A DNA stretch of 64,000 nt from Carcharhinus amblyrhynchos. Its lineage: Eukaryota. Position 1 is the stretch's first letter; each line of letters begins with the position of its first letter. Below are positions 7,180 to 53,784 of this stretch, one piece after another. The notes below the pieces were generated by a model. That model had not been told where the DNA came from. It saw only the letters and a program-made list of their open reading frames with translations, and did not search any database. The stretch is from positions 30,690,001-30,754,000 of the forward strand of contig OZ336872.1 of assembly GCA_965287045.1 (NCBI GenBank), in the 5' to 3' direction. Made by a program: the position numbers and the translations under genes.

Positions 7180-7466
7180 GTCATGTGGAGATGCCAGCTT
7201 GTGATTGGGGTAAACACAGTAAGAAATCTCCATCAGGTTAAAGTCCAACAGGTTTATTTGGTAGTAAACCCTGCTAGCTTTGGGAGCGCTGCTCCTTTGT
7301 CAAGTGAGCATTCTAATCAGTATTCTGTAAACTGTGCCTTTATATGCCCTGTTTGTGATCAGAACTCCCCACTCACCTGATGAAGGAGCAGCACACAAAG
7401 TTAGTGGGGTTTACTACCAAATAAACCCATTGGACTTTTAACCTGGTGTTGTGAGACTTCTGTCTG
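7180..7466. mobile_element. Fold-back Penelope-like short element, copy A
   Basis: Inverted arms ~7221-7308 and ~7372-7461; direct repeat AATTTGAAC at 7171-7179 and 7467-7475. Confidence 0.75.
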
Positions 7467-7571
7467 AATTTGAACAGCAGAAAAGCATACAATGTCTTGA
7501 TCTTTGGGGAAAATGGCCTTTGTGTAACTTTGTCATTTTTGTAAAATGACATCCTCCGTTCCAATTATCAT

Positions 7572-7855
7572 GAACATAAGAACATAACATAAGAAATAGG
7601 AGCAGGAGTAGGCCATCTAGCCCTTCGCGCCTGCCCCGCCATTCAATAAGATCATGGCTGATCTGTCGTGCCTCAGTTCCACATTCCTGCCCTCTCCCCA
7701 TAACCCTTAATCCCCTCTCATCAAAAACCCATCAACCCGCGTCTTAAAAATATTTAGTGAGGCAGCTTCCACCACTTCAACGGGCAGAGAATTCCAGAGA
7801 TTCACCACCCTTTGAGTGAAGAAGTTCCTCCTCAACTCCGTTCTAAACCGTTTCT

Positions 7856-10345: not shown

Positions 10346-12011
10346 ATCTTTGTTTCGGTCTTCACGGAGGAGGATGTGAATAATTTGCCGGGTGTTAGCA
10401 ATGAAAAGGTGGTAGGACTGGAGGGTCTCAATGACATTGTTACTAGAGAGGCGGTGCTCGACAGACTGGAGGGACTGATTGTGGACAAATCCCCAGGACC
10501 GGATGGAATGCATCCGAGGGTTCTGAAAGAAATGGCGGAGGTGATAGTGGATGCCTTGGTTATTTTCCAGATGTCGCTGGATTCCGGGGAAGTGCCGGAA
10601 GATTGGAAAACGGCTAATGTTACGCCGTTGTTTAAGGGGGGTGCCAGGCAGAAGGTGGGGAATTATAGGCCGGTTAGTTTAACGTCTGTTGTGGGTAAAA
10701 TGTTAGAATCCATCATCAAGGAGGAAATAGCGAGGCATCTTGAGGGGAATCGCTTGATAGAGCGGACGCAGCACGGTTTCGTTAAGGGGAAATCGTGTCT
10801 GACAAATTTACTGGAGTTTTGAGGATGTGTCTAGGGCAGTGGATAGAGGAGAGCTGGTGGATGTGATCTGTCTTGATTTTCAGAAGGCGTTTGACAAGGT
10901 GCCTTGGTTATTGCAGAAGGTCAGGGGACATGGAGTTGTGGGTAGGGTGTTTAGCGTGGATAGAGGACTGGTTGTCAAATAGGAGGCAGAGAGTGGGGGT
11001 CAATGGGTGCTATTTGGATTGGCGGTTGGTAACAGTGGAGTGCCCCAGGGGTTGGTGCTGGGGCCTCAGCTATTTACCATTTATATAGATGATCTGGAGG
11101 AGGGAACCGAGTGAATGGTATTGAAATTTGCTGATGACACCAAGATTGGTGGAACGGCAAATTGCGTGGAGAGTCTGCAGAAGGATCTGGATAGGCTGGG
11201 CAAATGGGCCAGGAACTGGCAAATGGAATTTAATGTTGGCAAGTGCGAGGTGGTCCACTTTGGTAGGAAGGATTATTACTTACATGGAGAAAAACTGCAG
11301 CAGGCAACAGTGCAGAGGGACCTCGGGGTCCTTGTGCATGAGTCACAAAAACCCAGCTTGCAGGTGCAGCAGGTGGTCAGGAAGGCAAATGGGATGCTGG
11401 CCTTCATAGCGAGGGGGATTGAATATAAAAGTAGGGAGGTCTTGCTGCGGCTGTATAGGGCATTGGTGAGGCCGCAGCTGGAGTACTGTGCAGTTTTGGT
11501 TGCTGTACTTAACGCAAGGATATTTTGGCCTTGGAGGGAGTGCAGAGGAGGTTTACTAGGCTGATGCCAGAGTTGAGGGGGTTGAGCTATGAGAGGCTGA
11601 ATAAACTAGGCTTGTAATCGTTAGTTTAGAAGAATGAGGGGAGATCTCATTGAGATGTATAAGATGATGAATGGGATGGATAGGATAGAGGTGGAGAGGC
11701 TCTTCCCACTCAGGACAGTAGGACTAGGGGGCACAGCCTCAAGATAAAGGGGGGGCAGTTTAGAACGGAGTTGAGGAAGAACTTCACTCAAAGGGTGGTG
11801 AATCTCTGGAATTCTCCGCCCGTTGAAGTGGTGGAGGCTACCTCGCTAAACATTTTTAAGACATGGGTTGATGGGTTTTTGATAAGAGAGGGGATTAAGG
11901 GTTATGGGGAGAGGGCGGGAATGTGGAACTGAGCCACGACAGATCAGCCATGATCTTATTGAATGGCGGGGCAGGCTAGATGGCCTACTCCTGCTCCTAT
12001 TTCTTATGTTA
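10346..12011 (+). mobile_element. Young CR1/HER1-like LINE, 5'-truncated, frameshifted RT (copy 2)
   Basis: KSPGPDGMHPRVLKE, NYRPVSLTS, KSCLTNLLEF, KFADDTK; same 3' UTR as the other copies. Confidence 0.95.
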
Positions 12012-13199
12012 TCTTGTGATTAATCTCCATTTATTTCAGAAAAGCTACCTAATTTGACAGCTTGTTGCCTTTAGTAGGAAACAGACTAAATGCTAATATA
12101 TGGTGGTTTAATCTTTAAAAGTTACTGCAATATATTATGTTAAATAGTGGTAATTATTAGGCTGCTGCTAAGTTTATATGATGCCTTAAGAATAGAAAGT
12201 GCTGAAGTGCTTCATTAGATCATTTTCAAACAATTTGGCACTGCATCTCATGGTTTAAAAACACATGGAATTCATAATTTTGGAACCTTGGTGACGAAAG
12301 GCACATCCACCAATGGTGAAGCAATGGAAGTCTGATGTGCAGGAGACTAGAAGTGGAGGATTGCAGAGAGTTTGATTCACTTGCAGGCAGTTGGGCTCCT
12401 GATTTTTAACCTTGGAGAACACATCTGTCAATGCAACATTGTTAAAGTGTTAAAGTCCTAAAGCCCACATTCTGTGAATGTGAATGCTAAACCAAGCTAG
12501 GAGTGATGGACAGACAAAGCTTGGAAAACTGGCATGTTGTGACTGTCTAGCATCTAGATTTGATTCTAAATGACTTTGTAGTGATGGCCTGTGACAGTTT
12601 GTTGCTGATCTCTGACCAGAAGAAATTTGGTAACTGGTTGTAGTGTCCTTTTTAAGAATTCTCAATCCAGTATGTATTGTCAAGCTGGCCGATCAGCCAC
12701 AATTCTACAACAGTCAATGAGTAAAAGTAATTAAACCAATCTTAATTTTGCACAAAGTAAAATAACAATGGGAGATTCTCATGAAGTAGGAACTCCCAAT
12801 GTTGCAACATTTAGAATAAGTTGTTTTAAATCTTGTCAAAAAACTCTAATTACAACTTTTTTCAAGGCCAGATCTTTTCATCAATAGTTCTTACTATGTT
12901 CACAGCATTTTAAAAACCCTTCTAATGCCCATGAGAGCAATAAAGGGGCTCCTTATTGATGAAGAATGTGGAGTTCCAGAATCCCTTGACTGCCAACCAA
13001 AATATTCTTGATCTTAATGGGTGATCCTTATCACTGCCTTCCTGTCAGAAAAACACTCTTCTATTGCTACCCTGTCTTCTATGACCAAGCTAGTTCTGTA
13101 TGCACCTCACCAGTTCTCCTCTGATCATGTGACTTCACCTTTTCATATCACTCAATCATGAGGTACCTTGTCAAAGGCTTTGAGATTGACAATTTCCTT

Positions 13200-34851: not shown

Positions 34852-35107
34852 GTGGGTACTGGTATTCACCTGTCATACTTCATTGATTCTTACATGGAAT
34901 CAAGATCTTTGGGATGGTTTCTTGGAACAGCAACAGAGCAGGTAATACTAGCCTGGTACGGTGCAATGAGTGGGATTGATGACCTCCTGAAGGTATCCCT
35001 AGGTAGCATAATCATTACTATGATTGAATTTTGCATTGTTAGACCAATAGGATATTGGAGGCAAAACTAGTATTTTAAACTTGAATGACAGTTATGAGGG
35101 CATGAAA

Positions 35108-36728
35108 GAACATAACATAACATAAGAAATAGGAGCAGGAGGAGGCCATCTAGCCCTTCGAGCCTGCCCCGCCATTCAATAAGATCATGGCTGATCTGTT
35201 GTGGCTCAGTTCCACTTTCCCGCCCTCTCCCCATAACCCTTAATCCCCTCTCTTATCAAGAACCCATCAACCCGCTTCTTAAAAATATTTAGCGAGGCAG
35301 CCTCCACCACTTCAACGGGCAGAGAATTCCAGAGATTCACCACCCTTTGAGTGAAGAAGTTCCTCCTCAACTCCGTTCTAAACCGCCTCCCCTTATCTTG
35401 AGGCTGTGCCCCCTAGTCCTACTGTCTTTTTTGAGCGGGAAGAGTCTCTCCACCTCTATCCTATCCATCCCATTCATCATCTTGTACGTCTCAATGAGAT
35501 CTCCCCTCATTCTTCTAAACTCTAACGAGTACAAGCCTAGTTTATTCAGCCTCTCCTCATAGCTCAATCCCCTCAACTCTGGTATCAGCCTAGTAAACCT
35601 CCTCTGCACTCCCTCCAGGGCCAGAATATCCTTGCGCAGGTGCGGCGCCCAAAACTGCACACAGTACTCCAGCTGCGGCCTCACCAATGCCCTATACAGC
35701 TGCAGCAAGACCTCCCTACTTTTATATTCAATCCCCCTCGCTATGAAGGCCAGCATCCCATTCGCCTTCCTGACCACCTGCTGCACCTGCAAGCTGGGTT
35801 TTTGCGACTCATGCACAAGGACCCCGAGGTCCCTCTGCACTGTCGCCTGCTGCAGTTTTTCGCCACGTAAGTAATAGTCCTTCCTACCATTCTTCCTACC
35901 AAAGTGGACCACCTCACACTTGCCAACATTAAATTCCATTTGCCATTTCCTGGCCCATTCGCCCAGCCTATCTAGATCCTTCTGCAGACTCTCCACACCC
36001 TCCGCACAATTTGCCTTTCCCCCAATCTTGGTGTCATCAGCAAATTTCGACACCCTGCACTCGGCTCCCTCCTCCAGATCATCTATATAAATGGTAAATA
36101 GCTGAGGCCCCAGCACCGACCCCTGGGGCACCCCACTAGTCACCAACCGCCAATCCGAATAGCACCCATTGACCCCCACTCTCTGCCTCCTATTTGACAA
36201 CCAATCCTCTATCCACGCTAACACCCTACCCCCAACTCCATGTCCCCCTGACCTTCTGCAATAACCTCTTGTGAGGTACCTTGTCAAACGCCTTCTAAAA
36301 ATCCAGAAAGACCACATCCACCGGCTCTCCTCTATTCACTGCCCTAGACACATCCTCATAGAACTCCAGTAAATTTGTCAGACACGACTTCCCTTTAATG
36401 AAACCGTGTTGCGTCCGCCCTGTCAAGCAATTCCCTTCAAGATGCCTTGCAATTTCCTCCTTAATGACGGATTCTAACATTTTACCTACCACAGACGTTA
36501 AACTAACCGGCCTATAATTCCCCGCCTTTTGCCTGGCACCCTTCTTAAACAACGGCGTAACATTAGCCGTTTTCCAATCTTCCGGCACTTCCCCGGAATC
36601 CAGCGACGTCTGGAAAATAACCACCAAGGCATCCACTATAACCTCCGCCATTTCTTTCAGAACCCTCGGATGCATTCCATCCGGTCCTGGGGACTTGTCC
36701 ACAATCAGCCCCTCCAGTCTGTCGAGCA
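35108..36728 (-). mobile_element. Young CR1/HER1-like LINE, 5'-truncated, best-preserved RT (copy 4)
   Basis: ORFs 36295-36765 and 35367-36317: SGVPQGSVLGP, KFADDTK; broken by one stop (LDF*) and one +1 frameshift. Confidence 0.96.
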
Positions 36729-38145: not shown

Positions 38146-39228
38146 GTACATAAAGGAGAACTGTTGGATGTACAGTGCTTGGATTTCTAGAAGACACATG
38201 ATTGTGCCACAAAGGTTATTGCAGAAAACAAAGTTCATGTTATAGGGAGGTAACATTGGCATGAATAGAAGATTTGACTTGCTAAAGGAAACTGGGGCTA
38301 ACCATAAGTGGGTCTTTTCTAGCAGAATGTAATTGGCCTACCAGTCTGGGCCAGGACCTAATTTATGTAAATGAATTGGATGAATGCACAGATGATATTG
38401 AGACAAGATGGGTAGGAAAGCAAGCTCTGAAGAGGATGCAAGGAGGCTACAAAGTGACAGTCGTTAAGTGAGTGGGCAAAGATCTGACAAATGGAGTATC
38501 ATGTGGGCAAGTGTGAAATTGCCCATTTTGGCAGGAAGTATACAAAAGCACATCATGGTGAGAAATTGCAGAGCTTGGATTAGGAAGAGTATGGATGTCG
38601 TAGCACATGAATTGTAAATGTTAGTATGCAAGTAAAGTAATTGGGAAAACTAATAGAATATTATTTATTCTGAGGGGAACTTTTTACAAAAGTTCACTGG
38701 TGACGCATCTGAAATAGTGTACCATATTGATTTCCTTTAAAGGAAATAAATGCATTTGAAGCAGTTTGACAAAGGGTTACTGATATCTGGAATGAACAGT
38801 TTGTAATGAAGGTTCAGCTTGTAAATGGTGGGTACATGAGTAAGAGGTGACTTGATTGAAATCTTAAGTGTTCTGAGGGGGCTTGGCAGTGGATGTGGAA
38901 AAAATGCCTCTTGTGGGAGAACCTAGGGGTCACAGTTTAAAAATTTAGTGATTTAATTTGAGGCTAATGAAGGGGCCAGGTGCCTTTTGAACTTCTCAAA
39001 AGGCAAGCTGGGCCTTTGAATATTAAGGCAAAGATAGGTATATCTTTGTGCAAGGTCATTGGGATAAGCAAAAAAATGGGATTTACAATCTGATCAACCA
39101 TGATCTTGAATTTCTGAGCGAGCTCAATGGTGGAGTTGCCTGTCATATTCATGTGAAATCTATTTGGGTAAAACTGCTCTAGCCTGTTTTGTAAAATATA
39201 CAAAGTGTTATTCTGATGTGTATTTCAG

Positions 39229-46359: not shown

Positions 46360-46527
46360 GCAGTCCATTTAAGGTGCCAGTCAAAGATGTTGTGGACCCA
46401 AGCAAAGTGAAGTGTAGTGGGCCTGGGCTGAGTTCAGGAGTACGAGCCAAAGTTCCACAACACTTCACCGTGGACTGTAGCAAGGCTGGAAAAGCTCCCC
46501 TCCAAGTGACTGTGCTGGGACCAAAAG
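46360..46527 (+). CDS. FLNB: FLNB exon 25 (Ig12/Ig13), 168 nt
   Basis: ttgtag|GCAGT...AAAG|gtacaa; [24 protein letters not shown]...LQVTVLGPK. Confidence 0.96.
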
Positions 46528-46852
46528 GTACAATCATAACCTCAGCAGTTTTAATTAGCCATTGATTAAAAATGCTAACTCATGATACAGGTTTATACAT
46601 ACCTTTCACTCTTTGGATGTGAGGATGAGGAGTCCGAGTCTAAGATTGATAATTCAGTTATATGATACAATGCTTGTGTGCCAGGTACATGCTTTGTATG
46701 ACTGTTAGGAGTGGATTTTTTGAATATTAATCATAAGTTTTTGACCAGTTGCACAGCTACGAAGCATTGTGCTCTTTTGGTTAAGGGCATCACTTGTCAC
46801 CTTTTTGAGTGACTGTTCAGATTTGCTGCAAGTTAAAGGTTTTCTGTTCTAG

Positions 46853-46945
46853 TTGGTGAGGCACAGCCCCAACCGTGGCGCAGCCCTTTGAAAACGATTG
46901 CAGACTTCTTTAAAGGAGAGACCAAGAACGATGACAGTGAGACAG
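46853..46945 (+). CDS. FLNB: FLNB alternative cassette exon 25a, 93 nt / 31 aa insert in Ig13
   Basis: tttctgttctag|TTGGT...ACAG|gtttgg; phase 1-1, stop-free; VGEAQPQPWRSPLKTIADFFKGETKNDDSET; resembles the optional human FLNB insert as I recall it (..WRSPLKALSEFFKG..). Confidence 0.85.
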
Positions 46946-47565
46946 GTTTGGATTTGAACTACTTAATCTCCAAGGCAAGAAAGGTGGTGGGCGTATATGG
47001 CCGGGAACAACTAAGCTGGTCCTGTCTGCTTTCATGTTAAGAGCCAAAGAGCTAGGCCTAATGCTTCAAGTAGAATTTTACTTTCCGTGTTGTCACTCTT
47101 AACAAGACCTTGTGTTAATTTTGTATAAAGGATTTTTAAATCACATTCCATTTTTATTTGGTAGCCCCTTTCTGACTAGAAAAATCTGGTTGACCATTTT
47201 CTAAAGTGAAAATCAGTATTTAAAATGGCACGTTTCTGTTGTATTTCATGGCAAATTTTTGCATGACCTAGTTCAATTCATTTCAAATTCCAGACATAAA
47301 TTTTGAAGAATCCTGAATGAGCAGATTGCTTCACAGCTTTTACTTGGTTGTGATTGTCTTGATACTGCAGAACTGGTTAAAAAAAATTTAAATATTTTGC
47401 TCATTGAAAGTTGTTTTTTGGGTTTGCTTCAATGTGTTTTAATTGAAGTGTAGACTGCTCAACATGGGCTGGTTTGTGAATCTACTCAAAATTAAAATGT
47501 GATTTGATTTTCAGTTGTAGTATTTTGTGTTGGGGCTGTATTAAACCCACAAGATTATGCCTTAT

Positions 47566-47812
47566 TGGGTAGCACAGTGGTTAGCACTGCTGCCTCAGTG
47601 ATGGGAACCAATTTTAATTCCTGACTTGAGTCACTGTGTGGAGTCTGCACATTTTCCCCCTTTCGTGTGTGGTTTTCCCTTGGTGCTCCAGTCTCTTCCC
47701 ACAGTCCAAAAAAACATGCTAAATTCTGTGCACCCAAACTGGTGCCAGAGTATGGCAACTAGGGGATTTTCTCAAACTTTATTGCCTTGTTAATGTAAGC
47801 CTACTTGTGACC
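47566..47812 (+). mobile_element. V-SINE-like SINE (tail type shared with 1-160)
   Basis: 'gcacagtggttagcactgctgcctca' head; tail 'aatgtaagcctacttgtgac'. Confidence 0.75.
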
Positions 47813-48282: not shown

Positions 48283-48406
48283 CCATAATTGAGTCTGCTG
48301 AGGTTATTGACAATGGTGATGGCACGCACACTATCAGCTACACACCTTCAGTCGAAGGGCCATATTCTGTTTCCATCCAGTATGGAGATGAAGAGATTCC
48401 TCGCAG
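48283..48406 (+). CDS. FLNB: FLNB exon 26 (Ig13), 124 nt
   Basis: ttgcag|CCATA...GCAG|gtaaca; [42 protein letters not shown]. Confidence 0.96.
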
Positions 48407-49337: not shown

Positions 49338-50593
49338 GTAAGTTTCAAATGTTTCCCTTCCAAGCAAATAAAGGATGAATGTGCATCAGTCTTAAAAATC
49401 TTTCCCTGCAAATAGTGGTTTTACAAAAAGGGAACAGCATGGATAAATTGGGCCAAAGGACCTGTTTCCTTGCTGTAAACCTCTTTCTCTAAATGGAAAG
49501 TGGGCAAGTAAGCCTGTTGTCCTACTTGCTTCTGCAGCAGTGTTTTGAGTTGACATCCTAGTCTTCTAGTAGTATTAAACTCCATCAGAATCTTTATTGC
49601 ATTCTGATAGGGACAACCTATAATTAGTTGAACAATAGAAAGCTTGATCTGCAATTTGGCCAGTGACAGCTAAGATTGCCTGCTTCATTCAGCTGGACTT
49701 TGATTTAAATTACTGTAGGATTTGTTTTGATTTTATTTTGCTGCCTTAATACTGCTATCTTCCTAAGAATAAAGAGAGAACAATTTCCAAGGTATATTAA
49801 ACTAGTTAGCTTCCAAACAAGTTTTTTTCCTTTACTTACAATAACTCAATTGCACACTGGTTCAAATAGACGTGCAACTCTTGCCATATTGCTCCTCAAC
49901 TATGCAATAATACCTTTTTAAAATAAGCCTTTATTCTGTTTAATAGCTTATTTCATGAACCTGTTGCTGATCCCAGTTTAATCATTGTCCTTTTTTCCGT
50001 AATGTAAGTGCTGCACAGTAGTTGTCTTTCTGATAATTGGCAGCGAATCACAAGAGCTAGGATAGTCTGACACAACAATATGCCTGTTGAATACTGATTT
50101 GTCTAAGTGTCATGCAGTACTAAGTCTTAACAACTCCCACATCTGATCTCTTTAATCCATTCTTAAAAGTACCTGCAAAAACTTTTTTGCTGCAAGACCA
50201 TTTTTACTCCTTGCTTTATCTATTTCTGGCTGTAAGGATGTGCAGAAGACTGTAGTTGCCATTGTAATCTTGGTGTAGGTTGTTCACTGCAACTAACTGA
50301 GCACATCTAGGGTGAAAAGGCTTTCTGCCATTGTTAACACCAACACTCAACCATCTCCCTAGAAATATCCTACTTGTTTTAAATAAATCAGAACCATTTT
50401 TCCTAGACTTGAGCATTTGCTTTAAAAGGTTGTATATTAACATGTTTGTTTTTTTTCTGGATGAATTGTACAACTGAGCTGTAAAATTCCAATGTTAAAA
50501 TGATTGTACTTTTTAGTGACAGTTGTCAGAAGTGGCTTATTTAAAAAGCTTGATAATACATTTTAGTAAAGCTGTTTTTTCTGTTGCCTGTAG

Positions 50594-53694: not shown

Positions 53695-53784
53695 GCCACA
53701 GATGAAGTTCCAGTAGTGCCACAGCAGATGGTACAACAGCAGCAGCAATCCCTAAATGCATATCCCCCTGGCTTCCAACCCTGG
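53695..53784 (+). CDS. FLNB: FLNB exon 30 (hinge 1, probable cassette exon), 90 nt
   Basis: cactag|GCCAC...CTGG|gtacag; phase 0-0; ATDEVPVVPQQMVQQQQQSLNAYPPGFQPW; not in the ORF track. Confidence 0.9.

Follow-up and report, generated by a model that had tools for sequence, protein, structure and literature searches.

FLNC carries an 82-aa insertion in repeat 20, a non-Ig peptide peculiar to this paralog that adds a binding site to the Ig repeat in which it lies: it binds myotilin and sets localization at the Z-disc (PMC7216277, partial text). The optional insert described here, in a shark filamin B (FLNB), is likewise a paralog-specific non-Ig peptide within an Ig repeat, but it belongs to another paralog and another repeat and differs in length, and the muscle Z-disc role is that of the FLNC insertion. 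FLNB has a well-studied optional in-frame exon of its own, hinge-1 exon 30 (QKI, RBFOX1, ESRP2, RBPMS), which also encodes a non-Ig peptide and is present in the shark gene, but this peptide lies between repeats instead of inside one and its sequence is loosely conserved. The shark counterpart of human exon 30 (positions 53695-53784; 90 nt, 30 aa) contains a Gln run, and an internal GT could yield a short form as in mammals. The tetrapod filamin-B isoforms with an insert in Ig13 share site, length and core with the shark cassette; examples are XP_066474122.1 from a skink, KAM4721012.1 and XP_075039379.1 from frogs, and XP_030888187.1 from the Weddell seal.

The FLNB splicing events in the literature covered, which includes PMC2199218, bioRxiv 2024.10.05.616792, PMC13217883, PMC12801440 and PMC5112600 (each available in part), are those of hinge exon 30 or of repeats 19-20. 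All FLNB events in the accessible supplements are hinge-exon sized, 39 or 72 nt (7/7 rows in PMC6613909, 2/2 event rows in PMC6788855 and 2/2 rows in PMC6103745). The proteome table of PMC13600778, in its accessible part, lists an 'Isoform 8 of Filamin-B' and gives no sequence for it. Our literature search, with subscription papers mostly outside it, returned no paper on an FLNB Ig13 cassette, and this exon is apparently unstudied, though annotated in tetrapod isoforms.

The window, a stretch of 64,000 nt from Carcharhinus amblyrhynchos, covers the greater part of a plus-strand filamin gene. In a tree built from 14 window exon stretches and 20 chordate filamins (21 rows), the gene grouped with FLNB with a support of 100/100, as sister to eight bony-vertebrate (teleost and tetrapod) FLNBs and not with FLNA or FLNC. 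Separate FLNA-like and FLNC-like loci were found in the same genome, and the FLNC-like locus is identical at 292 of 308 residues to named shark proteins, for two of the eight compared. PDB 2dj4, the 13th filamin domain of human filamin-B, was the best match of the host domain by both sequence and fold. The gene and the repeat are thus those named in the preliminary description, FLNB and Ig13, and the number 25 given there to the host intron fits the exon chain if an exon 1 upstream and an exon near 39226 are counted. The introns also contain near-identical repeated reading-frame fragments (11125-11406 and 11886-12020, and on the minus strand 7441-7731, 35070-35252 and 35744-35971), which are probably pieces of a LINE-type retroelement. 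ARAGORN detected no tRNA gene in the window.

The cassette and its surroundings are listed in Table 1. Intron 25 contains a stop-free, phase 1-1 segment of 93 nt, preceded by ttctAG and followed by GTttgg, which is translated in the frame of exon 25 into the 31 residues VGEAQPQPWRSPLKTIADFFKGETKNDDSET; the codon of Val1 is made of a G from exon 25 and the TT of the cassette. Exons 25 and 26 also join in frame without the segment. The sequence agrees with the preliminary description on all these points, but we rejected splice geometry as proof of an exon, as it is no more than chance would give: intron 25 has 67 stop-free phase 1-1 segments of 30-240 nt bounded by AG and GT, one of which is 93 nt long. 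The cassette is taken as real because of the RNA joints and the match to a profile of tetrapod inserts, both described below.

Table 1. Features of the FLNB Ig13 cassette and its neighbourhood (positions in the window).
Feature	Position	Strand	Evidence or remark
FLNB cassette exon, phase 1-1, 31-aa insert in the Ig13 C-D loop	46853..46945	+	sequence, inclusion and skip joints, tetrapod orthologues
Codons for residues 9-22, the conserved core (WRSPLKTIADFFKG)	46876..46917	+	conservation, hydrophobic moment
Codon of the core Ser (Ser11)	46882-46884	+	
Predicted helix Pro12-Lys21 within the core		+	modelled on the seal orthologue, pLDDT about 36-51
Cassette 3' splice site, weaker pyrimidine tract	46828..46852	+	pyrimidine fraction 0.55 vs 0.68-0.77 for exons 25-27
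Cassette 5' splice site CAG/GTTTGG	46943..46951	+	without the +3 purine of neighbouring donors
FLNB exon 25, Ig12 end plus Ig13 strands A-C	46360..46527	+	
FLNB exon 26, strands D-F of Ig13	48283..48406	+	
Single TGCATG, 315 nt downstream of the cassette	47260..47265	+	may be chance

The RNA evidence comes from contigs of four (X1, X2, X8 and X9) of 23 listed runs, which carry four organism labels and no tissue labels. Their RNA status was guessed, and it is supported by spliced GT..AG joints and by empty intron bins beside the cassette. We detected the inclusion joints 46527>46853 and 46945>48283 in two of the four runs, X1 (depth 4.2) and X9 (57.2), the supporting contig sides being short (28 and 31 letters). 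The skip joint 46527>48283 was present in three runs, X1 (13.7), X2 (70.3) and X8 (29.1); X1 is the run that carries both kinds together. X2 and X8 showed skipping only, with no inclusion joint. In X9, the inclusion depth compares with 74-96 on the flanking exons, contig depth being a poor measure of exon inclusion, and the skip joint was not among its listed joints, its contigs breaking at both exon ends. The intron bins adjoining the cassette had zero depth, and the other intronic depth fell on repeats except for one X1 bin. All three junctions are exactly those predicted beforehand, and the proposal of an optional cassette exon is borne out by the coexistence of inclusion and skipping. The TGCATG downstream of the exon has the form of an RBFOX-type element, and its presence there may be chance.

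The same contigs revealed two further features. Thousands of contigs from all four runs pile up on high-copy repeats at about 47560-47810 and 49435-49484, which look SINE-like. At position 48326 in exon 26, the window has G and the contigs of X1, X8 and X9, but not X2, have T, which is an allele or species difference.

The comparison with vertebrate FLNB isoforms suggested in the preliminary description yielded 24 database proteins, from frogs, reptiles and seals, with the same insert at the same site in the Ig13 C-D loop. Its length is 31 aa in all 24 carriers (23 from one spacing survey and one more). Isoform pairs of a skink and two frogs differ by 31 aa, and sister isoforms without the insert exist in species that carry it. 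When the skink insert was used as query, 15 of 18 candidates proved to be hits, from geckos, lacertids, turtles, a boa, a tailed frog and two seal species, with no bird or teleost among the 15; the insert was absent from the initial 121 proteins examined. Among 270 proteins with Ig13 at at least 50% identity, the loop was normal in 220, extended by the 31-aa insert in 23 and of other spacing in 4, while the pattern left the remaining 23 unparsed, those printed being without such an insert, truncated or mis-modelled. When a profile of 14 distinct tetrapod inserts was run against the window, the shark segment matched with an E-value of 3.6e-10 and the next of 2845 six-frame segments with 0.65; against 473 proteins, the profile matched the shark peptide and the 24 carriers and nothing else. 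The long human FLNB isoform presumably also has a 31-aa insert at this position. The cassette is thus the shark counterpart, by orthology, of an exon that tetrapod FLNB isoforms already have in their annotation, and conservation from shark to mammal, as claimed earlier, holds for site, length and core, the mammals being the two seal species.

The insert was not seen in 10/10 elephant isoforms, 6/6 caecilian isoforms or 6/6 readable teleost FLNB proteins, a count that leaves out seven other teleost proteins that were unanchorable or other filamins. Its lack in elephant, caecilian and teleost proteins may reflect loss or missing annotation; for these and for birds, absence from annotation is not absence from the genomes. 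Nor was the insert found in FLNA or FLNC proteins, and the profile matched no FLNC protein among the 473. In the shark genome, the FLNC-like (C19, near 32609000) and FLNA-like (C15, near 77788700) paralogs keep the intron position in Ig13 and have no comparable exon in that intron. A paralogous exon was rejected: a 32-mer matches the genome only once, and the best three-frame score against the inserts, 94 for the cassette, reaches just 29 for the FLNA-like intron and 18 for the FLNC-like one of 170 nt, these scores alone being used because the paralog-intron slices are off by a base or two. These results indicate that the FLNB cassette exon at 46853-46945 is real, deeply conserved and FLNB-specific.

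Conservation within the insert was assessed on 13 representative sequences, the shark and 12 tetrapod rows with duplicates dropped. E3, R10, S11, P12, L13, F19 and F20 are invariant in all 13, and K/R14 (13/13), I16 (12/13) and G22 (12/13) nearly so; little variation is seen at K/R14, I/L16, D/E/N18, K/R/N21, G/S22 and D/E23. The preliminary description had named a WRSPLK....FFKG core, of which RSPL and FF stand in 13/13 inserts and Trp9 does not, being present in 9/13 and absent from all four frog rows. Between shark and seal, the core is identical at 11/14 residues and the flanks at 6/17 (2/8 and 4/9). The identity in the adjacent Ig exons is 63/89 (37/49 and 26/40), and the core thus equals the Ig domain in conservation.

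This pattern bears on whether the cassette is merely a non-functional or noisy exon. Its splice sites are weak, two of the four runs have no inclusion joint, and the exon is unseen in the annotations of several lineages. On the other hand, the inclusion depth in X9 is 57 against 74-96 on the flanks, and shark and seal agree in length and core but have diverged in the flanks. A noisy exon is largely refuted by the conservation pattern, and we consider it very improbable.

The hydrophobic moment of the core is 0.69-0.71 at 100 degrees, the helical angle, against 0.14-0.16 at 170. This value of about 0.70, together with a low-confidence AlphaFold helix, supports the amphipathic helix proposed earlier. 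Such a helix might bind membrane as a weak lipid anchor on the filamin rod, for which the moment, the basic residues at both ends and the Trp of 9/13 inserts would be suited. However, only about 10 residues are helical, the net charge of the insert is 0 to -4 and several residues are invariant; lipid-binding helices usually keep pattern rather than residue identity. Membrane binding is therefore quite improbable.

The structure prediction on Ig13 with the insert, also suggested in advance, used two inputs with shallow alignments, the seal Ig13 with the insert (15 rows) and Ig12-14 with the insert (9 rows). In the former model, the Ig fold was kept (rmsd 1.2 to 2dj4), and the insert was placed between strands C and D, in the C-D hairpin, at a pLDDT of 43-51. 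A low-confidence helix of 10 residues was drawn over PLKxIxxFFK, starting at Pro, just after Ser, and ending at Lys, just before Gly. In the Ig12-14 model, the insert had a pLDDT of 36-47 and did not pack confidently on its neighbours, a lack which is weak evidence given the shallow alignments. According to these models, the Ig fold would stay intact and the loop would not pack on Ig12-14, so that Leu13, Ile16, Phe19 and Phe20 would be exposed. A PDB sequence search with the 31-mer gave no hits at E-values up to 10, and the ESM Atlas search gave no usable hit for the insert.

The insert could instead act in cis, folding on the C-D face of Ig13 or on a neighbouring repeat, where it would mask a ligand site or change the stiffness of the rod. 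It sits in the C-D hairpin, and the C-D cleft is where ligands attach to filamin (PMC7216277, partial text). Against this, neither the Ig13 nor the Ig12-14 model shows confident packing, and the pattern of the core is helical and not strand-like; action in cis seems unlikely.

Motifs that become folded when they bind typically show up as a conserved island whose surroundings vary and are modelled with low confidence, and the insert, with its conserved core between such flanks, is read in this way. We favour, at a probability of roughly 55%, an optional docking helix on flexible tethers, whose Leu/Ile/Phe/Phe face would fit into a groove of a partner and whose Ser11 would be a proline-directed phospho-switch. 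Alternative splicing would choose which cells carry the docking site, the flanks would serve as tethers, the core would fold on binding to the hydrophobic groove of a partner protein, and Ser11, at the helix N-cap in S-P-x-K/R, would act as the switch through Cdk-type phosphorylation. The 'binding or regulatory motif' of the preliminary description is likewise inferred from conservation. The FLNC repeat-20 insertion offers a precedent for an insert that binds a partner.

As noted there for SPLK, the core fits the CDK consensus S-P-x-K: a Cdk-type S-P-x-K/R site is present in 13/13 inserts, in a region of low pLDDT and hence flexible. S/T-P-x-K/R is common, with 11 hits in FLNB without the insert and a frequency of 6.4% in shuffles. 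S-P is also an ordinary helix cap, and the conserved S-P of the core may be structural rather than regulatory. We found no report of phosphorylation at the Ser11 site in the literature, phosphoproteomic supplements not being covered at scale.

Cdk phosphorylation is described for a paralog: cyclin B1/Cdk1 phosphorylates FLNA at S1084, S1436, S1459 and S1533 (PMC11346442, partial text). An S/T-P in Ig13 near an S1459-like position is found in 4/8 FLNA-type proteins, against 0/5 FLNB and 0/3 FLNC. In tetrapod FLNA it sits in the loop after Ig13 strand A, and we infer that it maps to S1459; the lungfish, paddlefish and shark FLNA-type proteins do not have it. The cassette may therefore give FLNB Ig13 a Cdk site that is constitutive in tetrapod FLNA, though in a different loop. 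Loss of FLNB alters Cdk1 signalling in chondrocytes, indirectly (PMC3925234, partial text).

The leading named receptor classes for a docking helix are those of PIP-like motifs and the APC/C's D-box receptor, two specific cases of the docking-motif explanation; a cytoskeletal partner not yet described is at least as likely. In the first case, the core would be a PIP-like motif of non-canonical type (L-K-x-I-x-D/E-F-F), recognized by PCNA or a different PIP-like receptor, and the adjacent Cdk site would gate access. It shares with p15PAF and other non-canonical PIP boxes the I-x-x-F-F hydrophobic trident and an acidic position 6, which is D/E in 12/13 inserts, and the amniote octamer LKAISEFF is identical at 5/8 residues to the p15 PIP box QKGIGEFF (PMC7225939, partial text). 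According to the same source, Gln1 of the PIP box may be missing, and acidity at position 6 is favourable. The pattern [ILM]xx[FY][FY] occurs in 13/13 inserts, nowhere in the 2603 aa of FLNB without the insert and in 0.35% of shuffles. FLNB containing the hinge is partly nuclear (PMC6103745, partial text), although the protein is mainly cytoskeletal, an actin cross-linker. All 13 inserts have Leu in place of the canonical Gln1 and thus fall outside the canonical PIP box, the model shows a 10-residue alpha helix and not a short 3-10 turn, the invariant R-S-P is left unexplained, and the pattern was picked after the sequence was seen. We regard a PIP-like function as not likely.

The R-S-P part is addressed by a second case, in which R-S-P-L-x-x-I-S-D/E/N would be a phospho-regulated APC/C D-box; as long as Ser11 carries no phosphate, the long isoform would be open to degradation or would bind the APC/C. 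This explains together why R, S, P and L are invariant, and RxxLxx[ILV] occurs in 13/13 inserts, in 0.2% of shuffles and once in FLNB without the insert. With the D-boxes of Dbf4 and KIFC1 the core has in common R at P1, Ser-Pro at P2-P3, L at P4 and a hydrophobic P7. P3 is often Pro, and Cdk1 phosphorylation at P2 blocks D-box use in Dbf4 (PMC5717348, partial text); KIFC1, securin and CDC6 are listed as phospho-regulated D-boxes (PMC9713472, partial text). The strict consensus RxxLx[DE]PhixN is found in 0/13 inserts, however: P6 is Ala or Thr instead of acidic, Asn at P9 is present in 1/13, and P10, a position at which small polar residues would be expected (PMC5717348, partial text), is Phe without exception. 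In addition, D-boxes bind in an extended form while the core is predicted to be helical, the invariant FF is left unexplained, and, unlike the D-boxes of Dbf4 and KIFC1, the core is part of a loop internal to a protein of 280 kDa. A D-box is accordingly improbable as it stands. The shuffle frequencies for both motifs concern post hoc patterns with residues in common and serve as leads only.

Two other motifs were rejected. The PP2A-B56 motif LxxIxE has its Glu at position 6 in 7/13 inserts and is absent in shark, frogs and one turtle. A Fip1 motif (PF05182) at 46852-46944 scored 12.3 bits in shark (E 0.13) against a Pfam cut-off of 22.7, a weak match confined to shark, with 0/9 among the insert-bearing tetrapod Ig13 stretches.

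FLNB underlies human skeletal dysplasias. The Ig13 cassette gives FLNB a second optional exon, whose core is as constrained as the folded domains and marks out R10, S11, L13, I16, F19 and F20. A bolder and rather unlikely reading is that, through an exon kept optional since the split of sharks and bony vertebrates, FLNB is the one filamin in which a Cdk site, a D-box and a PIP-like motif overlap, its long isoform being a cell-cycle-gated filamin. If so, APC/C or PCNA would bind the long FLNB isoform in its dephosphorylated state and Cdk1 would release it, and splicing would control a direct link between the actin cortex and the cell-cycle machinery in selected tissues.
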